A DNA stretch of 61,869 bases, the filler included. It is 5 parts of 5 records of this genome, joined end to end, with 100 filler letters (N's around TTAATTAATTAA, not from the genome) between each part and the next. Parts side by side here need not be neighbours in the genome. Positions count along the whole stretch, not along the records: positions 1 to 25,626 come from SRR2962707_1027; 4 more parts are not named here. One strand, written 5' to 3'. Numbering within the stretch: position 1 is the stretch's first letter; each line of letters starts with the position of its first letter. Positions 1 to 32,179 of the stretch are shown here, one piece after another. Both the position numbers and the translations under genes were made by a program. The notes beneath the pieces are model-generated. The model ran no database searches. It was given only the letters and a program-made list of their open reading frames with translations, and was not told where the DNA came from.

Positions 1-29
1 CGAGGGTTCGAATCCCTTCCTCTCCGCCA
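1..29 (+). tRNA. 3' end of tRNA-Ser (truncated by window start)
   Basis: T-arm GAGGG-TTCGAAT-CCCTT, acceptor 3' strand CCTCTCC, discriminator G, encoded CCA. Confidence 0.85.
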
Positions 30-36
30 TCCACCC
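13..36 (+). repeat. attL core TCCCTTCCTCTCCGCCATCCACCC
   Basis: Identical to 18294-18317; overlaps tRNA 3' end. Confidence 0.92.
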
Positions 37-120: not shown

Positions 121-1755
121 ATGGCCAAGGTCAAGCACCTCCACGAAATCAAAGGTCGTTTCGCAGTTCGCGTGGGTGTGCCCGCAGCGTTGCGTGGAAT
201 CGTATTTGGTGGCGATCCCGGTTCTGAGCTCCGCGAATGGCTGGGCACTGATAGAAAAGTTGCAGAGCGTGCAGCGCCGGAAGTAGTCGCGCGGTTCTAT
301 CGGCGCATTGATGAGGCGAAGGCCCAGCTCACCGCAGTTACGCCGACGCTGGGCACCGCAGCAAAGCATCACTACGCCGCTGAGCTAGTTCATGACGACC
401 GGGAGCGCATGAGCGGTGGCACGGCGACGCTCCGGAAGCACACGACACCGCACCGTGCCACCTTGCTCCGCATGCTTGTCAGCGGCGCGCTGCCACCCGA
501 TGAGGCCGAAGCTGTTATGGGCGATGCTGCTGATGCAGTTCTGGCCGTTGGTGCAGCGGACAAGGCGCTGCCGCGCATGGATTTGCTCAAGGCGCTCGCA
601 GAGGCACAGCTAGAGGCCATGGCGGGCGCTGAGCAGCGTGATGCAGGTAAAGTGGCACTTGCGCCCCCAGCCAGCCCTCTGTTGCAGCCAGAGGAGCCCG
701 CAACGCCCGCGCCGGTGAAACCACGCGCCACTGAGCACTCTGGGGAGACGATAGGTGAGGTTCTGGACCTATTCCATCGTGAGCGCACCGCAGGTGGACG
801 CAGCCTATCTGAGAAAACCATGCACGAGCACAAGGTTGCTATCCGCATGTTGCAGGAGTTCTTGGGGCAGGGGATCGCGGCCAGCTCAATCACGACCGCA
901 GACATGCGCAATTACAAGAATGCGCTTATCGAGACGCCAGCGAACTATGCGCTGCGCTTCCCTGGCATGACGTTGCCGAAGGCCATCGCCGCTAACAAGA
1001 AGCTGGCCAAGCCATTCCCCACACTCAACGCCAACACGATCAATGAGAAGTGGCTATCGCACGTCAGCACCATTCTTGGCTGGGCGATGAAGAACGGCTT
1101 TGTCGAATACAACCCGGCACGCGGCATCAAGATCGACCGGGGCAGGGGATATGAAGAACCTAGCCGCGTTGGTTTCAGTGGCGACGACCTCAAGCGCCTG
1201 TTTGGCACGACGCTGTTTGCTGACCCGGCCAAATACGAAACCCAGCAATGGGCGCTGCTCATAGCGCTCTTCACCGGCGCGCGCTCATCGAGCGAGATTG
1301 CGCGCATCAAGCTCAGTGACATCTATCAGGAGCAGGGTGTCTGGGTCTTTGATCTTGAAGAGGCCACCAAGAACGTCCACTCAAAGCGGCTGGTGCCAAT
1401 TCACAAGAAGCTCATTGAGCTGGGTATTCTAGAATACGTTGAGCGCTTGAAAAAGAAGGGCAAGACCAAGTTATTTTGGGATTGGGAGCCCGAAGACAAG
1501 ATCAACCGCTGGTTCCTGCGCACCTACAGGGCCCAGGTCGGCATCACGGATTCCCGCAAGGTCTTCCATAGCTTCCGGCATACGCTCAAGACGGCGCTGG
1601 CACGGCACGGCATCAATCGGGACGTATCGGACCTGATCACCGGCCACAAAGATCAGTCGGTCGGCGGCATCTATATCGGTGATGCTAGTGTCACGATGAT
1701 TGAGGCGATGCGCGACGGGCTGAACCGGTTGGAGTTCAGCCTTCGCAATGACTAG
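121..1755 (+). CDS. int: Tyrosine recombinase/integrase with extended (DUF6538-like) N-terminus
   Basis: ALFTGAR, HSFRH, ITGH and GGIY catalytic motifs; adjacent to att/tRNA. Confidence 0.93.
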   Translation: MAKVKHLHEIKGRFAVRVGVPAALRGIVFGGDPGSELREWLGTDRKVAERAAPEVVARFYRRIDEAKAQLTAVTPTLGTAAKHHYAAELVHDDRERMSGGTATLRKHTTPHRATLLRMLVSGALPPDEAEAVMGDAADAVLAVGAADKALPRMDLLKALAEAQLEAMAGAEQRDAGKVALAPPASPLLQPEEPATPAPVKPRATEHSGETIGEVLDLFHRERTAGGRSLSEKTMHEHKVAIRMLQEFLGQGIAASSITTADMRNYKNALIETPANYALRFPGMTLPKAIAANKKLAKPFPTLNANTINEKWLSHVSTILGWAMKNGFVEYNPARGIKIDRGRGYEEPSRVGFSGDDLKRLFGTTLFADPAKYETQQWALLIALFTGARSSSEIARIKLSDIYQEQGVWVFDLEEATKNVHSKRLVPIHKKLIELGILEYVERLKKKGKTKLFWDWEPEDKINRWFLRTYRAQVGITDSRKVFHSFRHTLKTALARHGINRDVSDLITGHKDQSVGGIYIGDASVTMIEAMRDGLNRLEFSLRND

Positions 1756-2002
1756 CCTGCTGGCGAAACTGGACACTCCCAATGTCGAGAGTAGTATAGT
1801 CCTTTCAATAGTTTAGCAAGATAAGCAGTCAAAAAGTGGGCCAAAGTGGATCACCATCTTGGACTCGGAACGGCACTGTTGCCGGTCATATATGTAGGGC
1901 GCTCGCCCATGGGCAGAGATGTAAGAACTGGACATTTGCAGACTCGCCCCTCTATCTGAGTGCCAAGCGCCATAGGGGCCAACGGTGGGGATTCTGCGCA
2001 AA

Positions 2003-3145
2003 ATGGCCAACAACCGAACTGTGTCGAAGGCAAGAGCCAACAAGCAGGATGAGTTTTACACCCAGCTTAGCGATATCAGCAACGAGCTCAGACACTATAG
2101 ATCGCAGCTTCGTGGAAAGACTATATTATGTAACTGTGACGATCCCTACGAGAGTAATTTCTTTAGATACTTTGCGCTCAACTTCAACGCTCTGGGCCTT
2201 AAAAAGCTGATCGCAACCAGTTACGATAAATCTGCCATTGCCGGTGGGCACCTGCCACTTCTTGACATCGAGGGTTTGAAGCCAGAGGGTCAGCAACCTT
2301 ACGCTATTGAAATCAATGAAGTCCCTGATCATAACGGCGATGGTGCGATTGACCTCAGTGATGTCGAGTATCTTCTTAAGCACGATGCAAATACCGCGCG
2401 GCCATTGAAGGGCGATTCCGAATGGGCGGCGGGCGACTTCCGAAGCTTCGAGTGCGTAAACTATCTATCTCAGGCAGATGTGGTAGTGACCAACCCGCCA
2501 TTCTCTCTATTCCGAGAATACATCGCTCAAATCGCGGCGCACGAAAAAAGCTTCCTAGTTATCGGCAACCAAAACGCGATTGACTACCGCGTCGTGTTTG
2601 ATCTCATCATACAGGACAAGCTTTGGCTCGGCGTCGATAATGGCGGGACGAAGTGGTTCCGGGTGCCCAACGACTACGAGATTGCGACAGAGTCTCGCAT
2701 AAAAGTAGAAGATGGCGTCAAATACTTCAGCATGGGCAGTATCATGTGGTTCACCAACATGGACAACCCCAAACGACACGACACCATCCCCCTCTACAAG
2801 GAATACAGTAAGAAAGAATACCCTACATACGATAATTATGATGCCATCGAGGTAAGCAGAGTCGCAGAAATTCCCATCGACTATGAGGGTGTCATGGGAG
2901 TCCCCATCACGTTCTTGGACAAATACAATCCAGCGCAATTCAAGATAGTGGGAATGTGCGAGAATCGAGATTTGTTCGGGTTGAAGACGCGCCTCTACAC
3001 AACAACGGAATGCCAAGATGCCTATTTCAGCATCTTCGGCAAAAAGGGGACATACGACCTGAACGCGGCTGCCGTGGTTCGTGGTCGAAAAGTCTACAAA
3101 CGGCTTCTCATCAGGAGGAAGAGCTCGAATGGAAATCTCGCATAA
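2003..3145 (+). CDS. EcoRI-family adenine-specific DNA methyltransferase
   Basis: KQDEFYT, ILCNCDDP, GDFRS and VVTNPPFSLFREY (motif IV NPPF). Confidence 0.88.
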   Translation: MANNRTVSKARANKQDEFYTQLSDISNELRHYRSQLRGKTILCNCDDPYESNFFRYFALNFNALGLKKLIATSYDKSAIAGGHLPLLDIEGLKPEGQQPYAIEINEVPDHNGDGAIDLSDVEYLLKHDANTARPLKGDSEWAAGDFRSFECVNYLSQADVVVTNPPFSLFREYIAQIAAHEKSFLVIGNQNAIDYRVVFDLIIQDKLWLGVDNGGTKWFRVPNDYEIATESRIKVEDGVKYFSMGSIMWFTNMDNPKRHDTIPLYKEYSKKEYPTYDNYDAIEVSRVAEIPIDYEGVMGVPITFLDKYNPAQFKIVGMCENRDLFGLKTRLYTTTECQDAYFSIFGKKGTYDLNAAAVVRGRKVYKRLLIRRKSSNGNLA

Positions 3146-4229
3146 GAGCGTCACTGTAGCTGACCTTTTCGAGGGTTACCTCGATAGCGGCGAGCTTGGC
3201 GTTCGAGGCTTCGGCGGTCTTCTGGATATTCGCCCCGCGTATCAGCGCGAGTTCGTTTACGATGACAAACTCAAGAAAGCAGTGATCGGCACGCTTCGCC
3301 GAGATTTCCCACTGAACACAATGTATTGGGCTGTATCTGGTGACGCTTTTGAGTTGATGGATGGCCAGCAGCGGACCATCAGTATTTGCCAGTATGTCAA
3401 CGGCGACTTTGCGGTTGATATTGATAGCTCACCAATGTTCTTCACGAATTTGACCGCCGAACGGCAGAAACAAATTCTCGAATACAAGTTGTCTGTTTAT
3501 GTGTGCGAAGGCTCGGATGGAGACAAACTTGAATGGTTTAAAATAATAAACATAGCGGGTCTAAAACTGGAGCCGCAGGAGCTCCGGAATGCAATTTACA
3601 CTGGCCCCTGGCTTTCAGACGCAAAAAGGTGGTTTTCCAAGACCGGTGCGCCTGCGGTCGCCATAGGCGCCAAGCTTTTGACCGGAACTCCCAATCGACA
3701 GGCCTATTTGGAAACCGCGCTCGACTGGATTTCTAAGGGTCACATCGAACAGTATATGGCCGAGCATCAGCGAGACCCTAACGCCAACCCACTTTGGACC
3801 TACTTCAAAAACGTCATCGATTGGGTGGATTTAACGTTTCCCAAGCATCGCAGGGAAATGAAAGGCGTGTCGTGGGGGCCGCTCTACGACCAGTATGGCA
3901 ATCAGCCGCTTGATCCGGTGGTGTTGGAGGCGCAGGTTAGCCAATTAATGACCGATAATGACGTGACTAAGAAGTCGGGTGTCTACGATTTTGTTTTGAG
4001 TGGAAGGGAAAGCGCCCTCTCGATCCGAGCCTTCGACGACAACATGAAGAGGGAGGCTTACGAAACACAGGCGGGACTTTGCCCTGCTTGTCCCCCTGAT
4101 AGAGGCCCGTGGGCGCTGAGCGAGATGGAGGCAGATCACATCACGCCTTGGAGCAAGAACGGGAAAACGACTGCGGAAAACTGTCAGATGCTCTGCAAAC
4201 CACACAACCGCACCAAGAGCGGGAAATAG
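3129..4229 (+). CDS. DUF262 (GmrSD-like) domain + C-terminal HNH endonuclease
   Basis: PAYQREFVY, MDGQQRT, WFKIIN; HNH EADHITPWSKNG...NCQMLCKPHN; overlaps MTase stop. Confidence 0.88.
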   Translation: MEISHKSVTVADLFEGYLDSGELGVRGFGGLLDIRPAYQREFVYDDKLKKAVIGTLRRDFPLNTMYWAVSGDAFELMDGQQRTISICQYVNGDFAVDIDSSPMFFTNLTAERQKQILEYKLSVYVCEGSDGDKLEWFKIINIAGLKLEPQELRNAIYTGPWLSDAKRWFSKTGAPAVAIGAKLLTGTPNRQAYLETALDWISKGHIEQYMAEHQRDPNANPLWTYFKNVIDWVDLTFPKHRREMKGVSWGPLYDQYGNQPLDPVVLEAQVSQLMTDNDVTKKSGVYDFVLSGRESALSIRAFDDNMKREAYETQAGLCPACPPDRGPWALSEMEADHITPWSKNGKTTAENCQMLCKPHNRTKSGK

Positions 4230-4266
4230 GATGCTTCGGGCTTGAAAATTTTCCTATTTAGGAATA

Positions 4267-5541
4267 TTGTCTGCTTTCGATCTACCGCGAGCAGAGCTAT
4301 TGCCCATCACCGACTACCTTACCGCCGTATTCCGCAAAGCCGATCCTGAGCCCACACCCGAGCCGGTGACGCTCACCGACCCGCTGGCGTCTTGGCTGTT
4401 CGGTGCGATGCCGACCCACTCCAATGTGTCCGTCAATCCAAAGTCGGCGATGCAGGTGCCAGCCGTATCGTCTGCAGTGGAATTGATTGCCGAGGCAGTC
4501 AGCACACTCCCTGTCAAACTCTTCGTGCGTAATGCCAAGGGCAAGGAAGCCGACCCGGCACACCCTGCCTTTCGCCTTGCGCATGATGAGTCCAACGATT
4601 GGACAAGCGCTGCTGAGCTGCGCACCCAGCTCACCCACGATGCCCTGTTGCACGATCATGGCGGCTTCGCACTCGCCAACCGCGTCAATGGCCGCGTTGT
4701 CGAGTTCATCCGCCTCGAGCCCACCAGCGTTGAGCCCAAGACCGACGACCGCACTGGCGAGCCCTACTACCTGATTAAGCAGGGCCGCAAAAATGTGCGC
4801 CATGAATACCGCGACGTGCTGCATATTCAGGCGTTCGGCGGCTCAGCACCCATCAATCGCGCCCGCAACGCAATCGCCCTGGCTATCGATCTTGAGCGCC
4901 ACGCGGCCAAACTGTTTGCCAATGGCGCGCGTCCATCTGGCATCCTGAGTTCTGACAACGACCTAAAGGACACCACACTCAAGAACATCATCGATATGTG
5001 GACCGCCACCCACGGTGGTGCCGCCAATTCTGGCAAGCCCGCCATCCTGCCCAACGGCATGAAGTGGCAGGCACTGGCATTGTCGAGCGTCGACGCTCAG
5101 TTCCTTGAGCAGTGCCGTTTTCAGAATGAACAGATCGCCCGCGCCTTCCGGGTGCCGCCGACCATGCTCTTCGATCTTGAGCGTGGCACGTGGTCCAACA
5201 CCGAGGAAATGCGCCAGCAGTTCCTTGAGCAGACTTTGCGCCCATGGCTGGACGCTTGGGAGTGGGCATACGCCCGCGTGCTGCTCAACCCCGAAGAACG
5301 CACCAGCCGCTTCTTTGAGTTCATCACCGACGACTTGATGACGGTCAACCACGCCGCACGCGCTGAGATTTACGGCAAGTATGTCGCCATGCGCGCCATG
5401 ACACCCAATGAGGTGCGCGCCGGGCTCAACCTTGCACCGTTGCCCGGTGGAGATGATCTGGCCAACCCCTACACCACCAGCGCCGCACCAGCGCAGGCCA
5501 ACAACGACAACCCACCTGATACCCAGAAAGACGCCGCTTAA
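4267..5541 (+). CDS. HK97-family phage portal protein
   Basis: VPAVSSAVELIAEAVSTLP, FANGARPSGIL, QIARAFRVPP, MTPNEVRA; TTG start uncertain. Confidence 0.92.
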   Translation: MSAFDLPRAELLPITDYLTAVFRKADPEPTPEPVTLTDPLASWLFGAMPTHSNVSVNPKSAMQVPAVSSAVELIAEAVSTLPVKLFVRNAKGKEADPAHPAFRLAHDESNDWTSAAELRTQLTHDALLHDHGGFALANRVNGRVVEFIRLEPTSVEPKTDDRTGEPYYLIKQGRKNVRHEYRDVLHIQAFGGSAPINRARNAIALAIDLERHAAKLFANGARPSGILSSDNDLKDTTLKNIIDMWTATHGGAANSGKPAILPNGMKWQALALSSVDAQFLEQCRFQNEQIARAFRVPPTMLFDLERGTWSNTEEMRQQFLEQTLRPWLDAWEWAYARVLLNPEERTSRFFEFITDDLMTVNHAARAEIYGKYVAMRAMTPNEVRAGLNLAPLPGGDDLANPYTTSAAPAQANNDNPPDTQKDAA

Positions 5542-5858
5542 TGCACAAGGCATTCTTTGGTGACCGTGAGCGAGAATTCGCGCTCACGCCGCACCTGATT
5601 CCAGAACTGGAACACAAGACTGGCAAGGGCATTGCCGCACTCATCGCTGGCTTCCGACACGCAACCTATGCCGACATTGCCGAAACCATCCGACTGGGTC
5701 TCATTGGTGCTGGCGAAAGTCCGCAGGAAGCCCACCGGCTGACTGGGATCTATGTGCCCATGCGCGCACTTGGCGAAGCCCATCTGTTGGCCTTGGATAT
5801 TCTCACCGATCTTTGGACCGGCCCGGAAGAGCAGCCCACTGATGAGGCAGCTTCCTGA
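5541..5858 (+). CDS. GTA-gp10-like tail assembly chaperone
   Basis: FFGDREREFAL...ELE, DIAETIRLGLIGAG pattern; TAATG coupling to portal. Confidence 0.65.
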   Translation: MHKAFFGDREREFALTPHLIPELEHKTGKGIAALIAGFRHATYADIAETIRLGLIGAGESPQEAHRLTGIYVPMRALGEAHLLALDILTDLWTGPEEQPTDEAAS

Positions 5859-7369
5859 TGGAAAAACTCGAAATCAAGGCTGAGGTCAGCATCGATGACG
5901 CTGGCACGATCACCGGCATGGCGTGGCCGTTCGGTGATGCCGATAGCGTTGGCGACATCATTGAAAAAGGTGCTTTTGCCCTTCCACCCGCGCTGCCTAT
6001 CGTGATGGAGCATGACCAGTCACAGGTTGTCGGCGTCTGGGAACAGGCCGCCGAGACCGACGCCGGGCTTGAGGTTAAGGGCCGTCTGTTCGTGGAAGGT
6101 ATCGGCCCGGCGCGTAAGGCCCGCGACGACATGCGCAGCAAGCGCATCACCGGCTTGTCCATCGGCTTCAAGGCCAATGGCTTCGACCCGCTACCCAGCG
6201 GCGGCCGCAAGTTCAACGCCCTTACAATCACCGAAATCTCTCTTTGTCGCCGCCCGGTTCACCCCGGCGCGCGGATTACCTCTGTCAAATCCATCAATCA
6301 GGAAAACCGTATGGACCCCGAGACTAACGACGAAAATGCTGCCCTCGAATTGAAGGCAGCAAACGACAACATCGCCAAGCTGACTGCCCGGCTGGACAAG
6401 GTTGAGGCCAAGGCCAATCGCCCTGTAGCAGCCAATGACAACCGGCCCGCGGCAAACGATAATACCGAGCGCAAGGCATTCGCCGACTTCATGCGCAACG
6501 GCGACACCAGCGAAGTGAAGTCGCTGGGTTATGGCTCGCCATCGAGCGGCGGCATTCTGGCACCCGAGCAGGTGGCAACGTCCATTCTGGAAAAGGTCGC
6601 TGAGTTCTCGCCAGTGCGCAGCCTTGCCCAGACCATCAGTATGTCCGGCCCGCTCTTGCAGCTCCCGCGCCTGGTGGATGAAGTTGAGCCAGTTCCGGTA
6701 GCTGAAACCGCTGCCCGCACAGAAGATGAGCCCAGCTTTGACCAGATCGACCTCAAGCCCTTCGAAATGGCCGTCATCGTCCCGGTGACCCGCATCCTGC
6801 TCGAAGATGCCCAGATCGACCTCACCAGCTATCTGAGCAACCACGTTGCCCGTCGCTTCGGCCAGAAAGAGGCCACTTGGTTCGTCAACGGCAATGGCAC
6901 CACCCAGGCAGAAGGTGTTCTCACGTCCACTGCCGTCGCTGATCATGAAGTTGAAGCCATCACTGGCGACGACCTCATTGACCTCTTCTATTCGATCAAG
7001 ACGGCCTATTCGTCCAATGGCGCTTGGCTGATGAACCGCAAGACCATGGCGGTCGTTCGCAAGCTCAAGGACACTGATGGTTCTTACATCTGGGAACGCG
7101 GCATTGCAGGTGGTCAGCCGCCCCAGCTGCTTGGCCGCCCGGTCTATGAAGCGGTGGACATGCCCGACATTGCAGCCGAGGCCACGCCTATCGTCTTTGG
7201 TGATTTCGCAACTGGTTATGCCATCGCAGACCGGACCGGTTTCGAAATCATCCGCGACGACCTGACCGGCGCTGGCAATGGCATTGTGAAGCTGCATGCC
7301 CGCCGTCGCGTGGGTGGCCGCATTATCATGGGTGAGGCACTGACCAAGCTCAAGCTGGCCGCAGCCTAA
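5858..7369 (+). CDS. Fused prohead protease (S78-like) + HK97 major capsid protein
   Basis: N-term GDIIEKGAF, EHD, GLSIGF, EISL; C-term GGILAPE, NGNGT, AWLMN, KLKDTDGSYIW, LLGRPV, IVFGDF. Confidence 0.92.
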   Translation: MEKLEIKAEVSIDDAGTITGMAWPFGDADSVGDIIEKGAFALPPALPIVMEHDQSQVVGVWEQAAETDAGLEVKGRLFVEGIGPARKARDDMRSKRITGLSIGFKANGFDPLPSGGRKFNALTITEISLCRRPVHPGARITSVKSINQENRMDPETNDENAALELKAANDNIAKLTARLDKVEAKANRPVAANDNRPAANDNTERKAFADFMRNGDTSEVKSLGYGSPSSGGILAPEQVATSILEKVAEFSPVRSLAQTISMSGPLLQLPRLVDEVEPVPVAETAARTEDEPSFDQIDLKPFEMAVIVPVTRILLEDAQIDLTSYLSNHVARRFGQKEATWFVNGNGTTQAEGVLTSTAVADHEVEAITGDDLIDLFYSIKTAYSSNGAWLMNRKTMAVVRKLKDTDGSYIWERGIAGGQPPQLLGRPVYEAVDMPDIAAEATPIVFGDFATGYAIADRTGFEIIRDDLTGAGNGIVKLHARRRVGGRIIMGEALTKLKLAAA

Positions 7370-7372
7370 GCC

Positions 7373-7993
7373 ATGAAGCTTGGCGCGGACGGCATATATG
7401 TCGAGTTGGCAGGCGAGGCTTTCGAGCTTCGCCCGTCTCTTCGCGCCAGCATGCGCCTTGTGCGACGGCATGGGCTCACAGGCCTACTTGCAGCCGCACA
7501 AGACTTCAATGTCACCGTCATCATGGACGTGTTGAGGGAAGCCGCCTTCAAGCCCAGCGTGTTGCTGGTAGAGATCGCGGCGATTGGCCTTGGCCCAGTC
7601 CGCAATCGTCTCAGCGGGCCGCTGGCAGACTTCGTCCTGGCTGTTGCTGGCATTGATCCCGACGACGCCGCGCCGAAAGTGCCAGCGCCCGGCAAGCAGA
7701 TGACCCCGCTCGAATACCACACCCGGCTCTTCGCGGTTGCCACTGGCTGGCTGGGCTGGACACCAGAGGAAGCATGGAACGCGACCCCCGCCGAAATCAT
7801 CGCCGCCAAGGCTGGCCGCACGGACCTCATCACCGACGTGTTGAAGGCCGTGTTTGGAAGCCCAGACGCCCCCGGCCAGACCGCCGATCACTACACGACC
7901 GAACAGCTCAGACAGATCGAAGCGGCTGGCCACGACCCGGCGTTCAATCGGGCTGGCCTTCATGCACTCAAGGGTAAGGAACGCGTTACCTGA
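7373..7993 (+). CDS. Putative tail assembly chaperone (G-T-like)
   Basis: N-term LAGEAFELRPSL and C-term GWLGWTPEEAWNATPAEI resembling gpT-type chaperones. Confidence 0.55.
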   Translation: MKLGADGIYVELAGEAFELRPSLRASMRLVRRHGLTGLLAAAQDFNVTVIMDVLREAAFKPSVLLVEIAAIGLGPVRNRLSGPLADFVLAVAGIDPDDAAPKVPAPGKQMTPLEYHTRLFAVATGWLGWTPEEAWNATPAEIIAAKAGRTDLITDVLKAVFGSPDAPGQTADHYTTEQLRQIEAAGHDPAFNRAGLHALKGKERVT

Positions 7994-8349
7994 TGCCCGT
8001 CGCGCCACCCCGTCTTTGCAGTTGCGGTAACATCGTGCCGTCCGGTGAGCGCTGCGCTTGCCAGATCGCAGGTGATCGCGCTCGCAAGGCCCGCTATGAC
8101 CGCCGCCGCCCGTCAGCGCGTGAGCGCGGCTATAACCATGAATGGCGCAAGGCCCGCGCCGCCTACCTTGCCGCGCACCCTCAATGCACCCATCCCGACT
8201 GCAATGCACTGGCCACCCACGTGGACCACATCATCCCCCACAAGGGTGATGACAGGCTGTTCTGGGACCGCACCAATTGGCAGAGCCTATGCGCCCATCA
8301 TCACAACAGCACCAAGCAGCGCGAAGAGCGCAAGCCGGTGCAGCCATGA
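7993..8349 (+). CDS. Terminase-associated HNH endonuclease (HK97 gp74-like)
   Basis: RGYNHEWRKAR, C..PDC, VDHIIPHKGD..LFWDRTNWQSLCAHHHN. Confidence 0.88.
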   Translation: MPVAPPRLCSCGNIVPSGERCACQIAGDRARKARYDRRRPSARERGYNHEWRKARAAYLAAHPQCTHPDCNALATHVDHIIPHKGDDRLFWDRTNWQSLCAHHHNSTKQREERKPVQP

Positions 8350-8834
8350 CACCAAAAGAAGCCCGCGAGATCGAACGGCTTGAGTTCGAAGCCGATTGCC
8401 GCGCTGCCCGTGAGCGTGCCTATGCGCTCATTGCAGCGCGCCACGGTGCCGAGCGTGCCCGCGTGCTGCGGTGGATTAATGACGAACGCCCTAAGCCCGC
8501 AGTTCGGTTTAAGCCCAAGCCGACACCGGTCCGCAAGGAATCTACGTTGCCGACCGCGACGCCGAAACGTGCACGCCTTCCGTCCGGCAAGCCACAGTAT
8601 GCACGCGGCTTGAGAATGACCTTGAGAGAGTGGGCTGACTATCTCGGTATCAGCCTGAACACCCTCTACCAGCGCATGCACAAGACGCGCTCTCTGGAAG
8701 GTGCCATCGCCATCGGTGACTTGAAGCCGAGCGGCAGACGAAAGGCGGGGGTGGTTGCGAACTTGCCAGCGTCTGAGGGGACCGGCGGGGGGACCGTCGC
8801 GCAAGATATTCCGCAAATAGAGTTTTTACATTGA
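8346..8834 (+). CDS. Hypothetical protein with HTH-like segment
   Basis: MTLREWADYLGISLNTLYQRM; ATGA overlap with HNH gene. Confidence 0.6.
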   Translation: MTPKEAREIERLEFEADCRAARERAYALIAARHGAERARVLRWINDERPKPAVRFKPKPTPVRKESTLPTATPKRARLPSGKPQYARGLRMTLREWADYLGISLNTLYQRMHKTRSLEGAIAIGDLKPSGRRKAGVVANLPASEGTGGGTVAQDIPQIEFLH

Positions 8835-9121
8835 CAGCACTTACCGACCTAAAAGGCCAGCTCAACATCATCGATGACGAGACTGACGACGACCTGCTCA
8901 CGCGCAAGATTGGCGCTGCCGAGGCGTCCGTCACAGCAGACATTGGCGCTGTAACGCCCGTCACCTATGACGATGCGCCTGCTGACCTGCGCGAAGCTAT
9001 TCTCATGAAAGCCGCCCATCTCTTCGAGAACCGGGAGGCCGTTCTGGTCGGCATCAGCGCTCAAGAGCTGCCGCTTGGCTATGCCGACCTTATAGCGCCG
9101 CACCGAAAGTGGGTGTTCTAG
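8831..9121 (+). CDS. Head-tail connector (gp6-like)
   Basis: LKGQLNI..DDDLL, PADLREAILMKAAHLFENRE. Confidence 0.85.
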   Translation: MTALTDLKGQLNIIDDETDDDLLTRKIGAAEASVTADIGAVTPVTYDDAPADLREAILMKAAHLFENREAVLVGISAQELPLGYADLIAPHRKWVF

Positions 9122-9546
9122 TGGCCTATTCCGCCCAATTGCAGCGAGTTTTGGCCCGCATTGAAGGCATTCCGCAGGCCATCCGTGCCGATATCCAGCC
9201 CAGCATCATCAAATCTGGCGAAGAGCTAGCGGGCATGATGGCCCATCTTGCCGAACCATCGCGCGACACCGGCGCACTTATCGAGAGCATTGAGGTGACA
9301 CTGCCCGGAGGCACCACGCCTGCCTACAGCCAGCCGGGTGGCGCTCGCACCGCGCATGAGCTTGAGGCCATTGTCACGGTCGGTAGTAGCGATGTCCGCT
9401 ATCCGCACCTTGTTGAATACGGCACCGCGCTGGCACCGGCCCAGCCCTTCTTCTGGTCTGCCGTGCGCAGCCTTCAGAAGCGCATCAACAATCGACTTAA
9501 CCGCACCGCCCGGAAGGCCGTGCGTGAATGGTGGAGTAAACAGTGA
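9121..9546 (+). CDS. HK97-gp10-like neck/tail completion protein
   Basis: DTGALIESI, YPHLVEYGT, AQPFFWSA. Confidence 0.82.
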   Translation: MAYSAQLQRVLARIEGIPQAIRADIQPSIIKSGEELAGMMAHLAEPSRDTGALIESIEVTLPGGTTPAYSQPGGARTAHELEAIVTVGSSDVRYPHLVEYGTALAPAQPFFWSAVRSLQKRINNRLNRTARKAVREWWSKQ

Positions 9547-9953
9547 CCGAACCTAGCCTTGCCTTACAGACAGCCATCCGGGCGCATCTGATCGCCTCAC
9601 CGCATGTCATGGAGCTGGTGGAGCCTAACGAGATCCGCGACGGCGACACCCGGCCCGAAGCCTTCCCCAGCATTATCCTGGGCACTGGGCAGGTCGAGAT
9701 AGCCGGTCATTACTCCAACTATCGGATCGTGACCGCCTATCTGGACCTGCACATTTGGGCAGCAGGGGAAGGGCTAGAAAACGCCAAGGCTATTGGCAGT
9801 GCCGTTTGGAACGCTATCGGTCGTGACCTTGAGGTGCCTAGCTTCGATCTAACTGACGGCATCCATGTGGAGCGCAGCATGTATTTGCGCGACCCTTCCG
9901 GTTGCTCGCATGGGGTGGTCAGCCTGCGTGCCAAGATGGGGTGTTTCCTTTGA
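9543..9953 (+). CDS. DUF3168 tail terminator-like protein
   Basis: PSLALQTAIRAHL, FPSIILG, LDLHIW, HGVVSL. Confidence 0.78.
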   Translation: MTEPSLALQTAIRAHLIASPHVMELVEPNEIRDGDTRPEAFPSIILGTGQVEIAGHYSNYRIVTAYLDLHIWAAGEGLENAKAIGSAVWNAIGRDLEVPSFDLTDGIHVERSMYLRDPSGCSHGVVSLRAKMGCFL

Positions 9954-10267
9954 TGCGCGCCGGGCGGTTGGACCGCACCATCACCTTGCAGCGTGAGACC
10001 GAAAGCGTGTCACCGGCTGGCACTGTCAGGTCCGCCTGGACGGATTTTGCCATCCTGCGTGCAGAGCAGATCAGCAGCACATTTGCCGAAGTGGCGCGAG
10101 CCTATGGCGAGGGAGACGGTGCCGACTTGGTGCTGCGCATCCGCCACTATCACGGCCTCACGACCAAGGACCGGCTTGTTTATGCAGGCCGCCCCTATGG
10201 CATCACCGGCATTGTCGAACTTGGCCGTCGCCGCGCCATGGAATTGCGTTGCGAGGCGGCATCATGA
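9953..10267 (+). CDS. Head closure / head-tail adaptor
   Basis: MRAGRLDRTITLQ, IRHY..LTTKDRLVY..Y.I, ELRC. Confidence 0.85.
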   Translation: MRAGRLDRTITLQRETESVSPAGTVRSAWTDFAILRAEQISSTFAEVARAYGEGDGADLVLRIRHYHGLTTKDRLVYAGRPYGITGIVELGRRRAMELRCEAAS

Positions 10268-10659
10268 GGGGACGTAAGCCTGCGACCGTCATAACAGGTA
10301 GCAATCCTGTTACGGTTGTGCCATCGCCACCCAGCTATTTCCCCAAGGATGCCAAGGCCGAATGGCGCAAGATTGCGCCCATCCTGATCAAAGAGCGAAA
10401 GACGCTCACCGAGGCCGATCTGGGCACGCTGGAAAGCTACTGCCTTGCCACCGGCAACATGCGCTCTGCCCAGCGCATCATCAATGTTGAGGGGCTGGTG
10501 ACGACAGACGGCAAGCGGCATCCCGCCTTCGGCATCATGAACGCCGCCCAGACCACCCAGCGCTTGTGCGCCGCTGAGCTTGGATTGACGCCAGTGAGCC
10601 GGTCGCGCCCTGCCGTGCGTAGCGAAGGGAACGATGACGACAACCCCTTCGCCATCTAG
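10264..10659 (+). CDS. terS: Terminase small subunit (P27 family)
   Basis: MRGRKP, AKAEWRKI, LESYC, HPA, ELGLTPVSR. Confidence 0.88.
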   Translation: MRGRKPATVITGSNPVTVVPSPPSYFPKDAKAEWRKIAPILIKERKTLTEADLGTLESYCLATGNMRSAQRIINVEGLVTTDGKRHPAFGIMNAAQTTQRLCAAELGLTPVSRSRPAVRSEGNDDDNPFAI

Positions 10660-12253
10660 CACCTATCCGGCTTGGATTTACGACGGCACGCCCATCGAAG
10701 ACACCTTCGGTGATGGCGAGCGCGCCGTTGCGTTCTTGCGTTGGCTTAAGCACCCAAAGAGCACGCTGCCCGGCAAGGGCTTTCAGCTTGACCCTTGGCT
10801 TGAGCGCATCGTGCGCCGCATCTATGGGCCGCGCCATCCGAACGGCAACCGCGTCGTCAAGACGGTGGTGCTGTTGTTGCCGCGCGGCAACCGCAAGACC
10901 AGCACCGCAGCCGCCCTGGCGTTGCTGCACACCATCGGCCCAGAACGGGTGCCGCACGGTGAGGCCATCTTTGCCGCCGCCGACCGCAAGCAGGCCAGCA
11001 TCGCCTTTAAGGAAGCGCTGGGCATCGTGCAGGCGCGCAGCCAGGTCAGCAGCGCGGTGAAGGTCTATGATGCCCACAACAGCGCGAAAAAGATCGTCTA
11101 TGCCAAAGAGCGGGTAACGCTTGAAGTGATCTCTGGCGATGCTGGCACCCAGCATGGTCGGACGCCCAATTTTGTGTTGGCCGATGAGTTGCACGTCTGG
11201 CCCAACTTTTACCTCTGGGAAGCCCTGCAGTCCGGCTTGGACAAGTCCGACAATACTCTCATGGTCGTGGCGACGACTGCCGGGCGCGGGCAAGAAAACG
11301 TTGCCTGGGAGCAGATTGAAGACGCCCGCAAGGTGGCGCGCGGTGAGGTTGATGACCCATCCATCCTGCCCATCTTGTTCGAAGCCGACCGCGACGCCGA
11401 TTGGCGCGATGAGGCGGTTTGGTATCTGACCAATCCCGGCCTTGCTCATGGCTATCCCAGCCTTGACGGCTTCCGCCGCGCCGCCGCCAAGGCGGAGCGC
11501 AGCATGCGTGAACGCCAGAGCTTCAAGCAGCTCAAGCTCAATATCTGGCTGGACCATTCCACCGACCCGTTCATTGACATGGACGTCTATGACCGCTGCG
11601 CTGGTGACGTCGAGCCGATGGACAATGCGCCGTGCTGGGTTGGCGTAGACATGTCCACCACCAGCGATCTCACCGCCGTTGTTGCTGCCTTCCGTGATGA
11701 AGACGGCCTCATCAGCGTGCAGCCGCATTTCTTTGTGCCCGGCGATGTGCTGCGCGATCGGGCTGACCGCGATGGCGTGCCCTATCCGGAATGGGCTGAG
11801 CAGGGCTTTCTCACCGCAACGCCCGGCAACGTCATCGATTTCGGTGCCGTCACGGAATATTTGGCTGAGCTGTGCGCCCGCTATGACGTGCAGGAACTGA
11901 ACTTCGATCCGCACTATGCCCAGCCCGTCATGGCGCCGCTACTTGCCGATGGCCTGCCGGTGCTGACCATGCGGCAGGGATGGGTAACGCAGTCGCCGGC
12001 GCTCAATGAGCTTGAGCGCGTCATTGTTGGCGGGCAGTTCCGCCATGGCGGGCACCCGCTGTTGCGCTGGTGCTTCTCCAACGTCGCCATCCACACCGAC
12101 AGCGCAGGCAACCGCACGATGCACAAGGGCAAGAGCACCGGGCGCATTGATGGTGCCGTTGCCACGTGGATGGCCGTCTCCCGCGCTGCTGCCAATGACA
12201 ACACCCCGTCCGCCTGGGACGATCCCGAATTTATGCAGAAGGTATATGGATGA
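10634..12253 (+). CDS. terL: Terminase large subunit (cos-type, HK97-like)
   Basis: Walker A PRGNRKT, Walker B VLADELH, TTAG, GVDMSTTSDLTA, GRIDGAVA. Confidence 0.92.
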   Translation: MTTTPSPSSTYPAWIYDGTPIEDTFGDGERAVAFLRWLKHPKSTLPGKGFQLDPWLERIVRRIYGPRHPNGNRVVKTVVLLLPRGNRKTSTAAALALLHTIGPERVPHGEAIFAAADRKQASIAFKEALGIVQARSQVSSAVKVYDAHNSAKKIVYAKERVTLEVISGDAGTQHGRTPNFVLADELHVWPNFYLWEALQSGLDKSDNTLMVVATTAGRGQENVAWEQIEDARKVARGEVDDPSILPILFEADRDADWRDEAVWYLTNPGLAHGYPSLDGFRRAAAKAERSMRERQSFKQLKLNIWLDHSTDPFIDMDVYDRCAGDVEPMDNAPCWVGVDMSTTSDLTAVVAAFRDEDGLISVQPHFFVPGDVLRDRADRDGVPYPEWAEQGFLTATPGNVIDFGAVTEYLAELCARYDVQELNFDPHYAQPVMAPLLADGLPVLTMRQGWVTQSPALNELERVIVGGQFRHGGHPLLRWCFSNVAIHTDSAGNRTMHKGKSTGRIDGAVATWMAVSRAAANDNTPSAWDDPEFMQKVYG

Positions 12254-14340
12254 ACGACCAGATTTTGGCCGTCTCAATTGAGGCGCGCATCAACAAGCTC
12301 GAAAAAGAAATGAAGAAGGCCAGCACCATTGTTGGCCGGAACTTCGACGGCATGGAGAAACGCAGCAAGCGCGCTGCCTCCGGCATCGAAAAGCACTTCG
12401 CTGGCATCGGTGATCGTATCGGCGGGATCGGTAAGAATATCGCAGCCGGGTTCATTGGTGGCCTTGTCGCGGGTGGTGTTACCGGCATCGCAGCCAAGTT
12501 TGGCGATGTCGCCAAGTCGGTTGCCCAGATCGGCGATGAGGCCAAGCGAGCCGGGCTTGGTGTCGAAGAGTTTCAAGAGCTAAAATATGTCGCTGAGCAG
12601 AACCGCATCGGCGTGGAGTCGCTGACGGACGGCATCAAGGAACTCAACTTGCGCGCCGATGAGTTTGTTGTGACCGGTAAGGGCAGTGCAGCTGAGGCAT
12701 TCACCCGGCTTGGTTATGATGCCGAGACCCTCAAGGAAAAGCTCAAGAACCCATCGGCTCTGTTCACCGAAATCATCGGCAAGCTGGGCAAGTTGGATAA
12801 AGCAGCACAAATCCGTATCGCCGATGAGATCTTCGGCGGCACGGGCGGTGAGCGCTTCGTGCAGCTTATCGAGCAGGGCGAAGCCGCGTTGAACCGAACC
12901 CGGCAGGAAGCGCATGCCCTTGGCCTTGTGATGAGCGCCGAGACAATCGCCAAAGCAGACGAGCTGGACCGGAAGTTCAACGCCATCGCCAACACGGTGG
13001 GCACCAAACTCAAGCAGGCCATTGTTGACGCTACCGGTGCGCTGGTGGACTTCATGAACAGCCTGCCGAAGTCTGACACTGAAGTCCTGGGCGATATGCA
13101 GGCTCGTGTTGCTGGTGTGCAAACTGAGCTTGAAGAGCTCACCCGGCACGCTGACGCTGCGTTCCCAGCACTGACCGGTAAGCTCTATGACCTCGTTGCG
13201 GGTTTCCTTGCTGGTAAGGAGAGCGCCGAAAACGCAAAGAATGCCATTCTGGATATGGCGCGTGCCGATCCTGACTTCGCGCCCATCGCTGGCGACATTA
13301 ATGGCCTGATTTCCCTGTTCACACTGCTCACCGGACAAGCACGTGAGGCCGCTGCAGCAATCGCAGCTGCTACCACTGACCCCGTAGGCACTATGCCTAG
13401 CTTCGGTGAAATCGGCACCACGTTCGCGCCGCCAGTTCCCGCCGCGCCGCTAAACACCGGTGGGCGTTCGGCTGGTGCTATGCGCGAGGAACGCGACGCG
13501 GCGAAGGAATTGATTGCCGAACTTGAGGCAGAGCTACGCGCCATAAGCATGTCCGAAGTAGAGAAACGGGTTGATGCTGAGCTGCGTAAGGCTGGTGCCA
13601 GCGCCACCGACGCGCAGAAGCAGTCAATCCGTGAACTGGTGATGGTCATTGAGACCGAAAGTGCCGCCATGGACCAGATGCAATCTGCCATGGAGAACGC
13701 CAAGGGTATGGCTAAAGACTTCTTGGGCGGTTTGCTGGGCGACCTGCGCAGCGGTGTTGATGGTGCCACGGCGCTCGCCAACGCTTTTGGCCGTCTCGCC
13801 GACCGCCTGCTCGATATGGCGCTCGACGGGCTGATCAACAGCCTGTTTTCGAACATGATGGGTGGCGCTGGCGGTGGTCTGCTTGGTGGTCTGTTTGGCT
13901 TTAGCCAGGGTGGCGTGGTGAAGGCCGCGACCGGTGGCTACATTCGAGGGCCCGGCACCGGCACCAGCGACAGCATTCCGGCCCGGCTGAGCGACGGTGA
14001 GTTTGTCGTCAACGCTGCTGCGACGAAGCGAAACTTGGACATCCTGCACGCCATCAATCGCGGTGAGGTTTCGGCCTTTGCCACTGGTGGCCTTGTCGGT
14101 GATGGTCCGGCGATCCGCGCGGCGAATGACAATATTGGGCACACCAATGACAACGCCGCGCCGGTGGTGACGATCAGCGCGCCGATCACCGTGAACGGTT
14201 CATCTGGGACGCCCGAGCAGAACGATGACCTCGCCAAGAAGATGCGCCGCGAAATGGAGAGTGGTATGCGATCAATCGTGACCGATGAGCTGCGTAAGCA
14301 GTCCAAGGTTGGAAACACACTCAACACCCGGAGCCGGTGA
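12250..14340 (+). CDS. Tail tape measure-like protein (696 aa)
   Basis: Long Ala/Gly-rich helical ORF with C-terminal ATGGYIRGPGTGTSDSIPARLSDGEFVVNA motif. Confidence 0.8.
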   Translation: MNDQILAVSIEARINKLEKEMKKASTIVGRNFDGMEKRSKRAASGIEKHFAGIGDRIGGIGKNIAAGFIGGLVAGGVTGIAAKFGDVAKSVAQIGDEAKRAGLGVEEFQELKYVAEQNRIGVESLTDGIKELNLRADEFVVTGKGSAAEAFTRLGYDAETLKEKLKNPSALFTEIIGKLGKLDKAAQIRIADEIFGGTGGERFVQLIEQGEAALNRTRQEAHALGLVMSAETIAKADELDRKFNAIANTVGTKLKQAIVDATGALVDFMNSLPKSDTEVLGDMQARVAGVQTELEELTRHADAAFPALTGKLYDLVAGFLAGKESAENAKNAILDMARADPDFAPIAGDINGLISLFTLLTGQAREAAAAIAAATTDPVGTMPSFGEIGTTFAPPVPAAPLNTGGRSAGAMREERDAAKELIAELEAELRAISMSEVEKRVDAELRKAGASATDAQKQSIRELVMVIETESAAMDQMQSAMENAKGMAKDFLGGLLGDLRSGVDGATALANAFGRLADRLLDMALDGLINSLFSNMMGGAGGGLLGGLFGFSQGGVVKAATGGYIRGPGTGTSDSIPARLSDGEFVVNAAATKRNLDILHAINRGEVSAFATGGLVGDGPAIRAANDNIGHTNDNAAPVVTISAPITVNGSSGTPEQNDDLAKKMRREMESGMRSIVTDELRKQSKVGNTLNTRSR

Positions 14341-14487
14341 GGGCGCAAAGCCGCAGCGGTGACCCAGGGCGGCAGGAACGCATGCCGGACGACCGCATGC
14401 CGCAAGAAAATGAGTTCGCCTGCAGGTGAGTCTCTAAGCCAGTTTCTGGTGACGTGCCGAGAACCAACTTGCCGGAAGCGCTTGATT

Positions 14488-14581
14488 TGTCCGTGCCAAA
14501 CTAGTCGAATGTCTGTCTATATATATCCTCTCGTTAGAAAATAACTAAGTAGACAGACAATCGACAAGTTTAGCACGGACA
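14488..14581. repeat. 32-bp imperfect inverted repeat with 30-nt AT-rich loop
   Basis: 14488-14519 matches the reverse complement of 14550-14581 at 29/32 positions. Confidence 0.9.
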
Positions 14582-14598
14582 CGCAACTCCGGCACGGC

Positions 14599-14627
14599 TT
14601 GACTATACACATACACGTGTGTATATG
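14599..14627 (+). promoter_or_regulatory. Putative sigma70 promoter overlapped by palindromic operator
   Basis: TTGACT-17bp-TATATG; TATACAC-N8-GTGTATA inverted repeat inside. Confidence 0.5.
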
Positions 14628-14658
14628 TTACGGCATCATAAACGCCTGTGGAGACCAC

Positions 14659-15090
14659 ATGACTGCCGCCCCCGTTACCGTCCGGCTTGACCCCCGCCGC
14701 CTTGAACAGCTCAAGGCTATTGCCACCGCGACCAGCTCGACCAGCGCCGGTGTCATCGCCCAGTTCATCCGCGACAAGATTGAACAGGGTGTTATCCCGC
14801 AAGATATCCCCGGCATCGTGGTGCATAAGGTGGGTGAGATTGTCCAAATCGACCTGAGCAAGGGCTACGGCAAGGCGTATTCACTTGCCGCTGCCTTGCA
14901 ATTGGCTAGCACCATTCGCAGCGTTGTTGAAGGTGGTGAGCCCTCGGCGGTAAACTTGGACTTTGGCTTCGCTGTGCTCAAGCAGGGCACCGGCTTCAAG
15001 ATCGCCGCGCCGTTCCCCGGGCCGGAAGTGAGCTTCCCCGGCGATCTCGCGATTGATCTTGCTGACCTGATCGAAGCGGCCGCAAAATAG
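14659..15090 (+). CDS. Ribbon-helix-helix (CopG-like) DNA-binding protein with extra C-terminal domain
   Basis: PVTVRLDPRRLEQLKAIA...SAGVIAQFI; GGAG SD upstream. Confidence 0.6.
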   Translation: MTAAPVTVRLDPRRLEQLKAIATATSSTSAGVIAQFIRDKIEQGVIPQDIPGIVVHKVGEIVQIDLSKGYGKAYSLAAALQLASTIRSVVEGGEPSAVNLDFGFAVLKQGTGFKIAAPFPGPEVSFPGDLAIDLADLIEAAAK

Positions 15091-15091
15091 A

Positions 15092-15122
15092 AACGCCACC
15101 GGTGGCTGATGCCGGTGGCGTT
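15092..15122. terminator. GC-rich hairpin after RHH gene
   Basis: AACGCCACCGG / CCGGTGGCGTT perfect 11-bp stem; U-tract weak. Confidence 0.5.
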
Positions 15123-15158
15123 GAATCTCTGCCATTGCCTTGAGAGGCGCCTAAAAAT

Positions 15159-15749
15159 ATGACAAACAAAAAAGACTGTCAACATATAACGAACAATGAA
15201 GGATCACCAGCCGATGAGGCTTTAGCGCTTGAACTGCTTGCCGACTTGGACATTGGCGAGAGTGCTCCCGTGGCGAATTTCATAGCGACCACCCCAGCAT
15301 TGCGGGCCGTCGCAGCGAAGCAGAACGAACGGACGGTCGGTAAGGGCGCAAAGCAGTCAAAACCCTCCTCGAATCCTTCAGCAATTAAAGAGCGTGAGCG
15401 CTATGCGCAGCATAAGGGTGGCGACGTCCGCACCTACTCCTGGAACAACATTGAGCCGCGGCGAATGTTTCCATACGAGTCCGAAGAAGACTACCAGCGC
15501 CGGTATAAGCGCGAGTATGCCCAGATCACGCGCGGGGTCACAGCTGAAGACATTGAAGCCAACGCACTCAATAGGGAGCTGACGACCCAAGAAGAGCGGA
15601 AGCAGGATAAGGCGAAGGCCGAGGCAAATAGGCGCGCCAACATTCCCACGTCTGAGCAGTCCGCCGCGCGCAAAGCTCGCCGCCATCGGGCGAAGGAACG
15701 CGCCAATGAGGAAGCTACAGCTACCCTCGCTGCCAGGAGCATAGTCTGA
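15159..15749 (+). CDS. Hypothetical basic, helical protein
   Basis: 196-aa ORF with GAGG SD; no recognised motif. Confidence 0.55.
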   Translation: MTNKKDCQHITNNEGSPADEALALELLADLDIGESAPVANFIATTPALRAVAAKQNERTVGKGAKQSKPSSNPSAIKERERYAQHKGGDVRTYSWNNIEPRRMFPYESEEDYQRRYKREYAQITRGVTAEDIEANALNRELTTQEERKQDKAKAEANRRANIPTSEQSAARKARRHRAKERANEEATATLAARSIV

Positions 15750-17995: not shown

Positions 17996-18209
17996 TAAAA
18001 GTCCGCCGGAAGATGTAGACGGCATGATAAACTGCCCGCACCAAGTCAACATCTCGTGAGGCGAACTTTCAAATTCTTGTGGACAGCGCAGGGATTTCGT
18101 CAAAGCGAATAATATTGAAGCTCTTCTATGAGCTCTACCCGCTTCTGCAACGTGCCCTGAGGTATCTGCCCACAGCGGGCGGTCATGCTGGACTTGCAGT
18201 GGCCCACTG

Positions 18210-18275
18210 GGTGACAAAAATGCAGTCACAAAAGGTGACAAAATCGACCGATTGTGACGGTCTAAGTTATTGATT
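18210..18275. promoter_or_regulatory. Right-end arm-type sites and IHF-like site
   Basis: GGTGACAAAA x2 plus GTCACAAAA; minus-strand AATCAATAACTTA fits IHF consensus WATCAANNNNTTR. Confidence 0.6.
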
Positions 18276-18293: not shown

Positions 18294-18317
18294 TCCCTTC
18301 CTCTCCGCCATCCACCC
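18294..18317 (+). repeat. attR core (duplicated tRNA 3' end)
   Basis: Identical to 13-36. Confidence 0.92.
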
Positions 18318-25626: not shown

Positions 25627-25726
25627 NNNNNNNNNNNNNNNNNNNNNNNNNNNNNNNNNNNNNNNNNNNNTTAATTAATTAANNNNNNNNNNNNNNNNNN
25701 NNNNNNNNNNNNNNNNNNNNNNNNNN
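25627..25726. other. Artificial contig linker
   Basis: N-run, TTAATTAATTAA, N-run. Confidence 0.98.
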
Positions 25727-31700: not shown

Positions 31701-32179
31701 GTTTGTTGGTCGTGGTTGGGGCAGTACATCCAGTCTTGGAAGTCGGGCGATGCCGCGAACGTGTGCGAGGAGCACGGGGCCAAGACGCACTGGGCGTCGA
31801 AACCTTCCCAGTTGGCGTTCGACGAGCCGTGCTGGTAAATGTACGACGTGCAAAGCCGCCAGCGGCCGTTGCCCGCTGTGTTGTGAGTCACGCCGGTACA
31901 AAACTCGCCCTGAGCAGCGCAGGCTGCCTGGGCTGTCTCGTAGTCCGCTTGCGTATCCCCGAGTGTCAGGACACCTGAAAATGTGCATGTGGCCCGTTGG
32001 ATGATGCCGGCGCTGGCAAGACTTGGCCACGTGTAGCTCGTGCACAGCGGCCCGTCCGCGCCGACGGTGGGGGATTCGGCAACGAGCCCTACCGCCGACA
32101 CAATGGCCCACCTAGCTGTAGCATAGCGGCTGCATGTTTTCCTGCTGCGAGAGCACTTTCTATTCCGCGTGGGCCTCAT
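25727..32179 (-). CDS. Giant eukaryotic secreted/surface Cys-rich repeat protein (>2150 aa, 3'-truncated)
   Basis: Uninterrupted ORF; hydrophobic N-terminal segment; poly-Thr tracts; CSDGVQNGDE.GVDCG repeats; LNR-like GDGNCD...CGWDGGDCC. Confidence 0.8.

Follow-up and report, generated by a model that had tools for sequence, protein, structure and literature searches.

SsrA tags are marks added to failed translation products. To our knowledge, natural proteins carry only the LAA-like, ClpX-binding end of such a tag. In Escherichia coli, the AANDENY segment of the tag binds the adaptor SspB and the ALAA segment binds ClpX, and tags with weakened ends are SspB-dependent (PMC8512704). In Caulobacter, fusion of the AANDNFAEEFAVAA tag leads to rapid proteolysis, and deletion of sspB slows it (PMC9393093). 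We analysed a stretch of 61,869 nucleotides, filler included (the window), of which positions 1 to 25,626 come from record SRR2962707_1027 and contain an integrative island with phage head genes. We found that the portal protein of this island ends in a 14-residue tail that has the layout of the native SsrA tag of its relatives' alphaproteobacterial hosts. We read the tail as a mimic of the SsrA tag that the genome itself encodes, that SspB and ClpXP recognise and that marks unassembled portal, and we put the probability of this reading at roughly 0.55.

The portal gene and the parts of its tail are the following.

4267..5541, + strand: HK97-family portal gene, taken as the longest open reading frame (ORF), from TTG 4267; translation more likely begins at TTG 4300
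5497..5541, + strand: 14-residue C-terminal tail ANNDNPPDTQKDAA plus stop codon, an SsrA-tag-like segment (residues 5497..5538, stop TAA 5539..5541)
5503..5511, + strand: NDN core, which matches positions 3-5 of the host tags and is the presumed SspB-binding head (from tail conservation, and from host tags that begin ANDN)
5524..5532, + strand: codons for Q-K-D (E-K-D in relatives), purine-rich and Shine-Dalgarno-like for the next gene
5533..5538, + strand: terminal Ala-Ala, the presumed ClpX-binding end (AA in all Devosia-clade tails compared)

The ORF matched the portal family Pfam PF04860 over its full length (expectation value (E) 1.2e-91, profile positions 1-321 of 321), and the closest solved chain was 8cez (E 5.8e-30). 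Homologs are 411-414 aa long and begin MPIT.., so the portal probably starts at TTG 4300 and not at 4267. A first interpretation of this DNA, made from the letters only (the sequence-only reading), had described the portal C-terminus as ANNDN-x7-AA-stop, 14 residues in all, and we confirmed this description: the tail is ANNDNPPDTQKDAA and ends ..DAA directly before the stop. An AlphaFold2 model of the portal had a mean predicted local distance difference test score (pLDDT) of 86.3. In this model residues 387-424 had no secondary structure, and the last three blocks of residues (ten, ten, then four) had pLDDT values of 55, 56 and 47. The tail is thus predicted to be a disordered, exposed segment.

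We found that the tail is conserved among portal homologs. Counts of these homologs refer to the best 120 of 1,389 matches. Of the 120, 94 end in AA and 64 have NDN followed at a distance of three to twelve residues by a terminal AA (NDN.{3,12}AA$). The spacer between NDN and AA in these 64 is most often seven residues (43 homologs), followed by six (13), five (4), eight (2) and eleven (2). Among 148 further, more distant cluster representatives, 26 had the AA end and 6 had the NDN-x-AA motif. As background we used 332 ORF-derived genes from 400 kb of Devosia-like genome; 10 of the 332 ended in AA and none had NDN in the last 20 residues. The window genes outside the island were similar, with an AA end in 2 of 41 and NDN near the end in 0 of 41. 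The pattern in the portal tails is much more than chance.

For the Devosia clade we right-justified 57 tails, leaving out 4 of 61 rows that were truncated or unmatched by the tail filter. AA was present in 57 of 57. The residues N, D and N of the core were found in 45, 47 and 44 of the 57, respectively, and Ala at position -14 in 46, while positions -13, -7 and -6 were variable. The sequence-only reading had proposed aligning the C-termini of homologous portals, and this alignment bore it out: both the terminal AA and NDN are conserved.

We also looked for the portal in wider samples. An even sample of the order had the portal at E <= 1e-80 in 21 of 401 genomes; the portals of genomes G761, G626 and G711 are without NDN. 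A class-wide sample had it in 7 of 401 genomes at E <= 1e-60, and the 6 new tails were without NDN. A class-wide sample with the Rhodobacter capsid, aimed at Rhodobacterales hosts, found only genome G001 (1/401). A profile scan of viral contigs added 80 loci, and the first 24 of these gave 23 usable tails (one ORF was cut), among which NDN-x-AA occurred in the known relative only.

We compared the portal tails to the tags of the hosts. Host transfer-messenger RNA (tmRNA) tags were predicted with ARAGORN, with the following results.

Tag ANDNHKAPVALAA, spacer NDN-7-AA: genomes G001, G002 and G735
Tag ANDNYAEARLAA, spacer NDN-6-AA: genomes G003-G007
Tag ANDNYAPVAQAA, spacer NDN-6-AA: genome G670

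Portals in G001, G002 and G735 have NDN-7-AA, and those in G003-G007 and G670 have NDN-6-AA. That is, the portal spacer equals the tag spacer of its own host in 10 of 10 motif-bearing loci (9 genomes). This includes the portal of G670, which is 42% identical and ends AANDNNDSRNAAA. The Devosia-type tag (A)ANDNHKAPVALAA, from two Devosia-type genomes with close portal relatives, has 14 residues and NDN-7-AA, like the window tail. The claim that the tail is a length-matched SsrA mimic therefore stood in one part, since the spacer matches that of real host tags, and was amended in another: the Caulobacter tag had been taken as the reference, and the relevant tag is the Devosia type. The further suggestion that the tail is a hard-coded degron agreed with the data as far as its sequence-level predictions go (NDN, AA and spacer). 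The same reading conjectured that such a degron could hold portal and free capsid at low levels until the arrival of a helper.

The proposed readers of the tail are encoded by the hosts of the relatives. A member of the SspB family (PF04386, over the cut-off) was found in 4 of 4 host genomes searched, and clpX (TIGR00382) in 5 of 5. Solved structures that match the Devosia SspB are 2qas and 2qaz of Caulobacter SspB (about 1e-34) and the Agrobacterium structure 2nys. For Devosia SspB (residues 1-125) and the 40 C-terminal residues of the portal encoded by the same genome, the co-fold score was 0.49, the best of three controls scored 0.01, and the runs had at least 84% shared contacts with a partner pLDDT of at least 48. 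The mark that counts as a pass is reached by 51 of 78 solved complexes and by 2 of 108 mismatched pairs. The co-fold thus gives weak support to binding of the tail by SspB.

As a separate observation, sspB lies near the tmRNA gene in all four genomes G001-G004 (loci L012/L015, L011/L016, L009/L013 and L010/L014). The distance is about 140 bases in two Devosia-type genomes and about 3 kb in two Mesorhizobium genomes. An apparent position of relative L001 next to tmRNA and sspB was rejected: the coordinates are alike, but the contigs differ in length (887,085 vs 811,797).

The motif is not confined to the portal. The other carriers in the island are the following.

5858..7369, + strand: prohead protease (S78) fused to HK97 major capsid protein, ending LKLAAA (Pfam PF04586, PF05065)
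6356..6463, + strand: scaffold-like linker within the capsid fusion that carries AANDN three times, just before ERKAF (NDN at 6362-6370, 6434-6442 and 6455-6463)
10634..12253, + strand: large terminase (TerL), with AAANDN 17 residues before the C-terminus (Pfam PF20441, PF03354; motif at 12185-12202, NDN at 12194-12202)
12250..14340, + strand: tape-measure-like protein, 696 aa, with AANDN and TNDN near the C-terminal region (14125-14154) (phrog_10574, E 2e-142)

NDN occurs 11 times in all six frames of the window, and 7 of these are in island genes: one in the portal tail, three in the capsid linker (AANDN), one in TerL (AAANDN) and two in the tape-measure-like protein (AANDN and TNDN). Island ORFs thus have 7 NDN and 5 AANDN per 4,756 residues, compared to 3 NDN and 0 ANDN per 123,222 residues of background (Poisson p about 5e-11). 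The sequence-only reading had missed these AANDN copies outside the portal. It had noted that the capsid ends in LKLAAA, and this is so; an AA end is present in 97 of 120 capsid homologs, and 88 of 120 have at least one NDN in residues 131-260. The TerL NDN is at the same place in L001, L002, L026 and L006, and relatives of the tape-measure-like protein have ANDN about 60-68 residues from the end.

Two side observations concern these motifs. TerL of L026 and of L006 is also AA-ended, 16 residues past NDN. In addition, the variants AANTN and AANSN occur beside NDN in capsid linkers (L008, L007, L003) and in some portal tails (for G761, locus L066), so the motif may be AANxN with D preferred at x.

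We mapped the tail motif on a portal tree. The tree was made with FastTree from 215 portals with the last 32 residues removed, and it is unrooted and quickly built. The motif was present in 68 rows and required 19 or more changes, of which well-supported branches force 16, compared to a mean of 58 after shuffling. It occupies the Devosia clade, together with a second clade that has a Mesorhizobium-named row. Lone motif-bearing rows (P0141, P0155, P0158, P0167 and P0191) are found inside distant clades that otherwise lack the motif, which looks like repeated gain of the tail motif.

If the tail is an SsrA-tag mimic, it could work as follows. The tail would be exposed in free portal subunits or rings. 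SspB(alpha) would bind the NDN head and tether the portal to ClpX, the AA-COOH end would enter the ClpX pore, and ClpXP would degrade the unassembled portal. With Asp at -3 the ClpX site is probably weak, so that degradation would depend on the adaptor, by analogy with engineered SspB-dependent tags. In the procapsid, the C-terminal crown of the portal would point into the shell and the tail would be out of reach. We infer protection by assembly because portal C-termini generally lie inside the capsid; SspB binding, degradation and the physiological purpose are likewise proposals.

Several observations weigh against this mechanism. The window tail and 48 of the 57 Devosia-clade tails have Asp at -3, where native tags have Leu or Val. 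The tail head in the window is ANNDN and not AANDN; most relatives have ADNDN and few have AANDN. Among the 23 readable tails from the even sample of the order, the motif was present in only 2 and the AA end in 8, and on the tree a 35-row clade that includes Rhodobacterales-named rows had the motif in 0 of 35 (22 with neither NDN nor AA, 13 with AA only). The tag, SspB and ClpX of the window's own host were deduced from the genomes of relatives. The spacer match is suggestive and not conclusive, because it comes from about three independent lineages and two spacer lengths only. The co-fold score lies in the weak zone at or below 0.60, which holds the passes of only 5 of the 78 solved complexes and all 4 passing mismatches (of 180). 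A similar complex, of SspB with an ssrA peptide, is already among the solved structures, and the pass may therefore reflect that known structure. Residues E-K-D at positions -5 to -3 are accounted for at the level of the DNA (see below). Lastly, NDN is found at the same four positions in relatives of both clades, which fits a motif internal to the element; NDN lies directly before ERKAF, the presumed mature capsid N-terminus, in both clades; and loci with NDN-less portals still keep NDN in the capsid linker.

These last points favour the main rival explanation, in which NDN (or AANxN) is read by the element's own machinery, for instance as a cleavage site for the S78 protease or as a contact motif common to the scaffold linker, TerL tail, tape measure and portal tail, which would come together at the portal vertex, and in which the likeness to SsrA is coincidental and the AA incidental. 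All four NDN carriers being proteins of the virion module, and the AANTN and AANSN variants in the capsid linker, point the same way. We think this explanation is unlikely. It leaves unexplained the invariant terminal AA (57/57), the agreement of the spacer with the host tag in every motif-bearing locus, and the identity of AANDN, five times in the island residues and absent from the background, with the first five residues of the tag. In addition, we know of no case in which TerL or the tape measure is a substrate of the prohead protease, which also counts against it. It is also conceivable, although we consider it distinctly unlikely, that the tail and the other AANDN sites engage SspB and ClpX without destruction of the portal. 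The sites could be an SspB decoy that spares other ClpXP substrates, or they could bring in ClpX to act as unfoldase or chaperone during head assembly or packaging. Most of the AANDN sites in the island have no AA end nearby, and the abundant capsid protein has three AANDN copies; both facts favour this explanation. PMC8512704 describes SspB binding without degradation for the head motif alone in E. coli, and according to PMC9638019, deletion of clpX in the system of the gene transfer agent (RcGTA) of Rhodobacter capsulatus gives tailless immature particles. A close link to RcGTA was rejected, as the RcGTA portal 6tba is only a distant match (E 8e-13), and the clpX phenotype is therefore an analogy only. 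What this explanation does not account for is the presence of both tag halves in the portal tail at their native distance, as delivery to the ClpX pore needs.

We also considered whether the tail was shaped by DNA-level constraints only (the Shine-Dalgarno sequence, the spacer and the overlapping start of the next gene), with no peptide function. The next gene is the following.

5541..5858, + strand: small gene of 105 aa that follows the portal, with translational coupling to it (Pfam PF11836 Phage_TAC_11, E 1.6e-16; phrog_8985)

The portal stop TAA shares bases with the downstream ATG at 5541 (TAATG overlap). The overlap is TAATG or TGATG in the Devosia clade and ATGA or GTGA in the other clade, where the downstream ATG or GTG takes its first base from the last Ala codon. 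Codons -5 to -3 (GAGAAAGAC, AAGGAC, GAGGTG or GAGGAA) are Shine-Dalgarno-like and in relatives stand 6-9 nt ahead of the next gene's start, and they appear to serve as the Shine-Dalgarno sequence of the downstream gene. Such constraints cover positions -5 to -3 only, because the Ala codons vary and the overlaps differ. Each of the two Ala codons is represented by at least four synonymous codons across loci, so that third positions vary and the residue is kept; AA is present under both overlap geometries; and relatives with the same ATGA overlap and a Shine-Dalgarno-like AAGGAA end in EPA. Thus, AA is not forced by the gene overlap. NDN is ten codons 5' of the stop, outside any ribosome-binding site, and the motif is also present in distant portal clades. 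The sequence-only reading had itself named the case that AA merely reflects the Shine-Dalgarno and overlap sequence and is not conserved. That case failed for AA and NDN and held for the Shine-Dalgarno-like codons -5 to -3. On these comparisons the DNA-only explanation is largely refuted and very improbable, and the tail, judged by its codons, is under selection at the protein level. Capture of the tail DNA from a tmRNA gene was ruled out as well: there is no nucleotide likeness to the template beyond the motif codons.

The setting of the portal gene is an integrative island, for which the features below were found in addition to those already given.

13..36, + strand: attL, a 24-nt exact direct repeat within a tRNA-like gene, at its 3' end; the window edge cuts this gene (context GGTTCGAATCC..CCGCCA)
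18294..18317, + strand: attR, the second copy of the 24-nt repeat
121..1755, + strand: tyrosine integrase of the island (Pfam PF00589, E 2.5e-12)

The two copies of the repeat bound the island, which is therefore about 18.3 kb. Gene order is integrase, EcoRI-type methylase, GmrSD/HNH protein, portal, small gene and protease-capsid, followed by HNH, head-tail adaptor, neck, tail terminator, head-closure, small terminase (TerS), TerL and the tape-measure-like gene. Among the island ORFs scanned, none was recognised as a tail tube, baseplate, lysis or replication gene; several ORFs had no assignment. The genes of the island (121-15749) may be those of a capsid-forming satellite or of a defective prophage. 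Related predicted proviruses in IMG/VR are 15-18 kb. Close relatives come from Devosia; those from Mesorhizobium, Rhizobiaceae and Rhodobacterales are more distant, at about 50% identity. No cultured phage relative exceeded 40% identity in the 1,922 matching records.

Other observations concern the island and its surroundings. Short repeats of the GTGACAAAA type lie just within both island ends (72-118 and 18199-18245) and look like integrase arm sites. The EcoRI-type adenine methylase and the GmrSD-N/HNH protein (1985-4229) fill the interval between integrase and portal at a G+C content of 0.50, vs about 0.60; the pair have the appearance of defence cargo acquired by insertion. The host part of the window has an ORF of 2,166 residues with Asn/Asp/His-rich low-complexity stretches (25679-32179, - strand).

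Were the portal tail indeed an SsrA-tag mimic read by SspB-ClpXP, mobile elements would have copied a complete quality-control address label of the host to regulate their own assembly. The tail would be a natural example of an adaptor-dependent degron and, if the spacer match is widespread, a feature of a phage protein that is linked to host identity. A bolder version, which we find doubtful, has the whole virion module wired to the host SspB-ClpX. In that version the dimeric adaptor would recognise AANDN in all four places, the tails of portal and TerL, the capsid linker and the tape-measure-like protein. It would serve as a checkpoint or hub by which unassembled parts are cleared, held or gathered, and the portal tail would co-evolve with the host tag, including its spacer. 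If general, this would mean that for alphaproteobacterial phages and satellites the trans-translation tag serves as an address label that can be programmed, and spacer matching would be a new marker of host range. In the literature searched, the scope of which did not extend to the core SspB(alpha) studies, we came across no description of a portal, or of another virion protein, with a tag mimic. What appears to be new, on the evidence of sequence, is that a structural protein naturally carries the complete tag layout in a form that matches the host.

We compared the island and its portal tail to known systems. Satellites of the capsid-forming phage-inducible chromosomal island (cf-PICI) kind are integrative islands that have their own head, connector and terminase genes and lack tail tube, baseplate and lysis genes. 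In the island we found an integrase, att repeats, and head, connector and terminase genes, together with a 696-aa tape-measure-like gene and several unassigned ORFs. The HK97 portal (8cez/8fql) is of the same fold family as the portal described here, with a moderate match (E 5.8e-30) in which the conserved ..LPGGD.. segment near the C-terminus aligns. The 8cez alignment ends at this segment and so is uninformative on the HK97 portal's own tail. Natural ssrA-like ClpX degrons (C-motif 1) and engineered SspB-dependent tags such as AANDENY...ADAS in E. coli were compared as well. The portal tail shares with the engineered tags a presumably weak ClpX end next to an intact adaptor head, a design by which degradation comes to depend on SspB (PMC8512704). 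Those tags are laboratory constructs, and the natural proteins are known to carry only the LAA-like end, whereas the portal tail has both halves naturally, in a virion protein, and tracks the host tag.

We also compared the tail to the native alphaproteobacterial SsrA tag, which works with SspB(alpha) and ClpXP (Caulobacter AANDNFAEEFAVAA; Devosia-type (A)ANDNHKAPVALAA). The portal tail shares with this tag the length of 14 residues, NDN at positions 3-5, the AA end and the spacer length of the host. It differs in being encoded by a gene and not added by trans-translation, in a spacer of unrelated sequence (PPDTQKD in the portal vs HKAPVAL in the tag), and in having Asp for Leu or Val at -3 and, in the window, Asn and not Ala at position 2. 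Because the tail is encoded in the portal ORF, by DNA unlike the tmRNA template, we regard it as a mimic of the SsrA tag and not as a member of the tag family.

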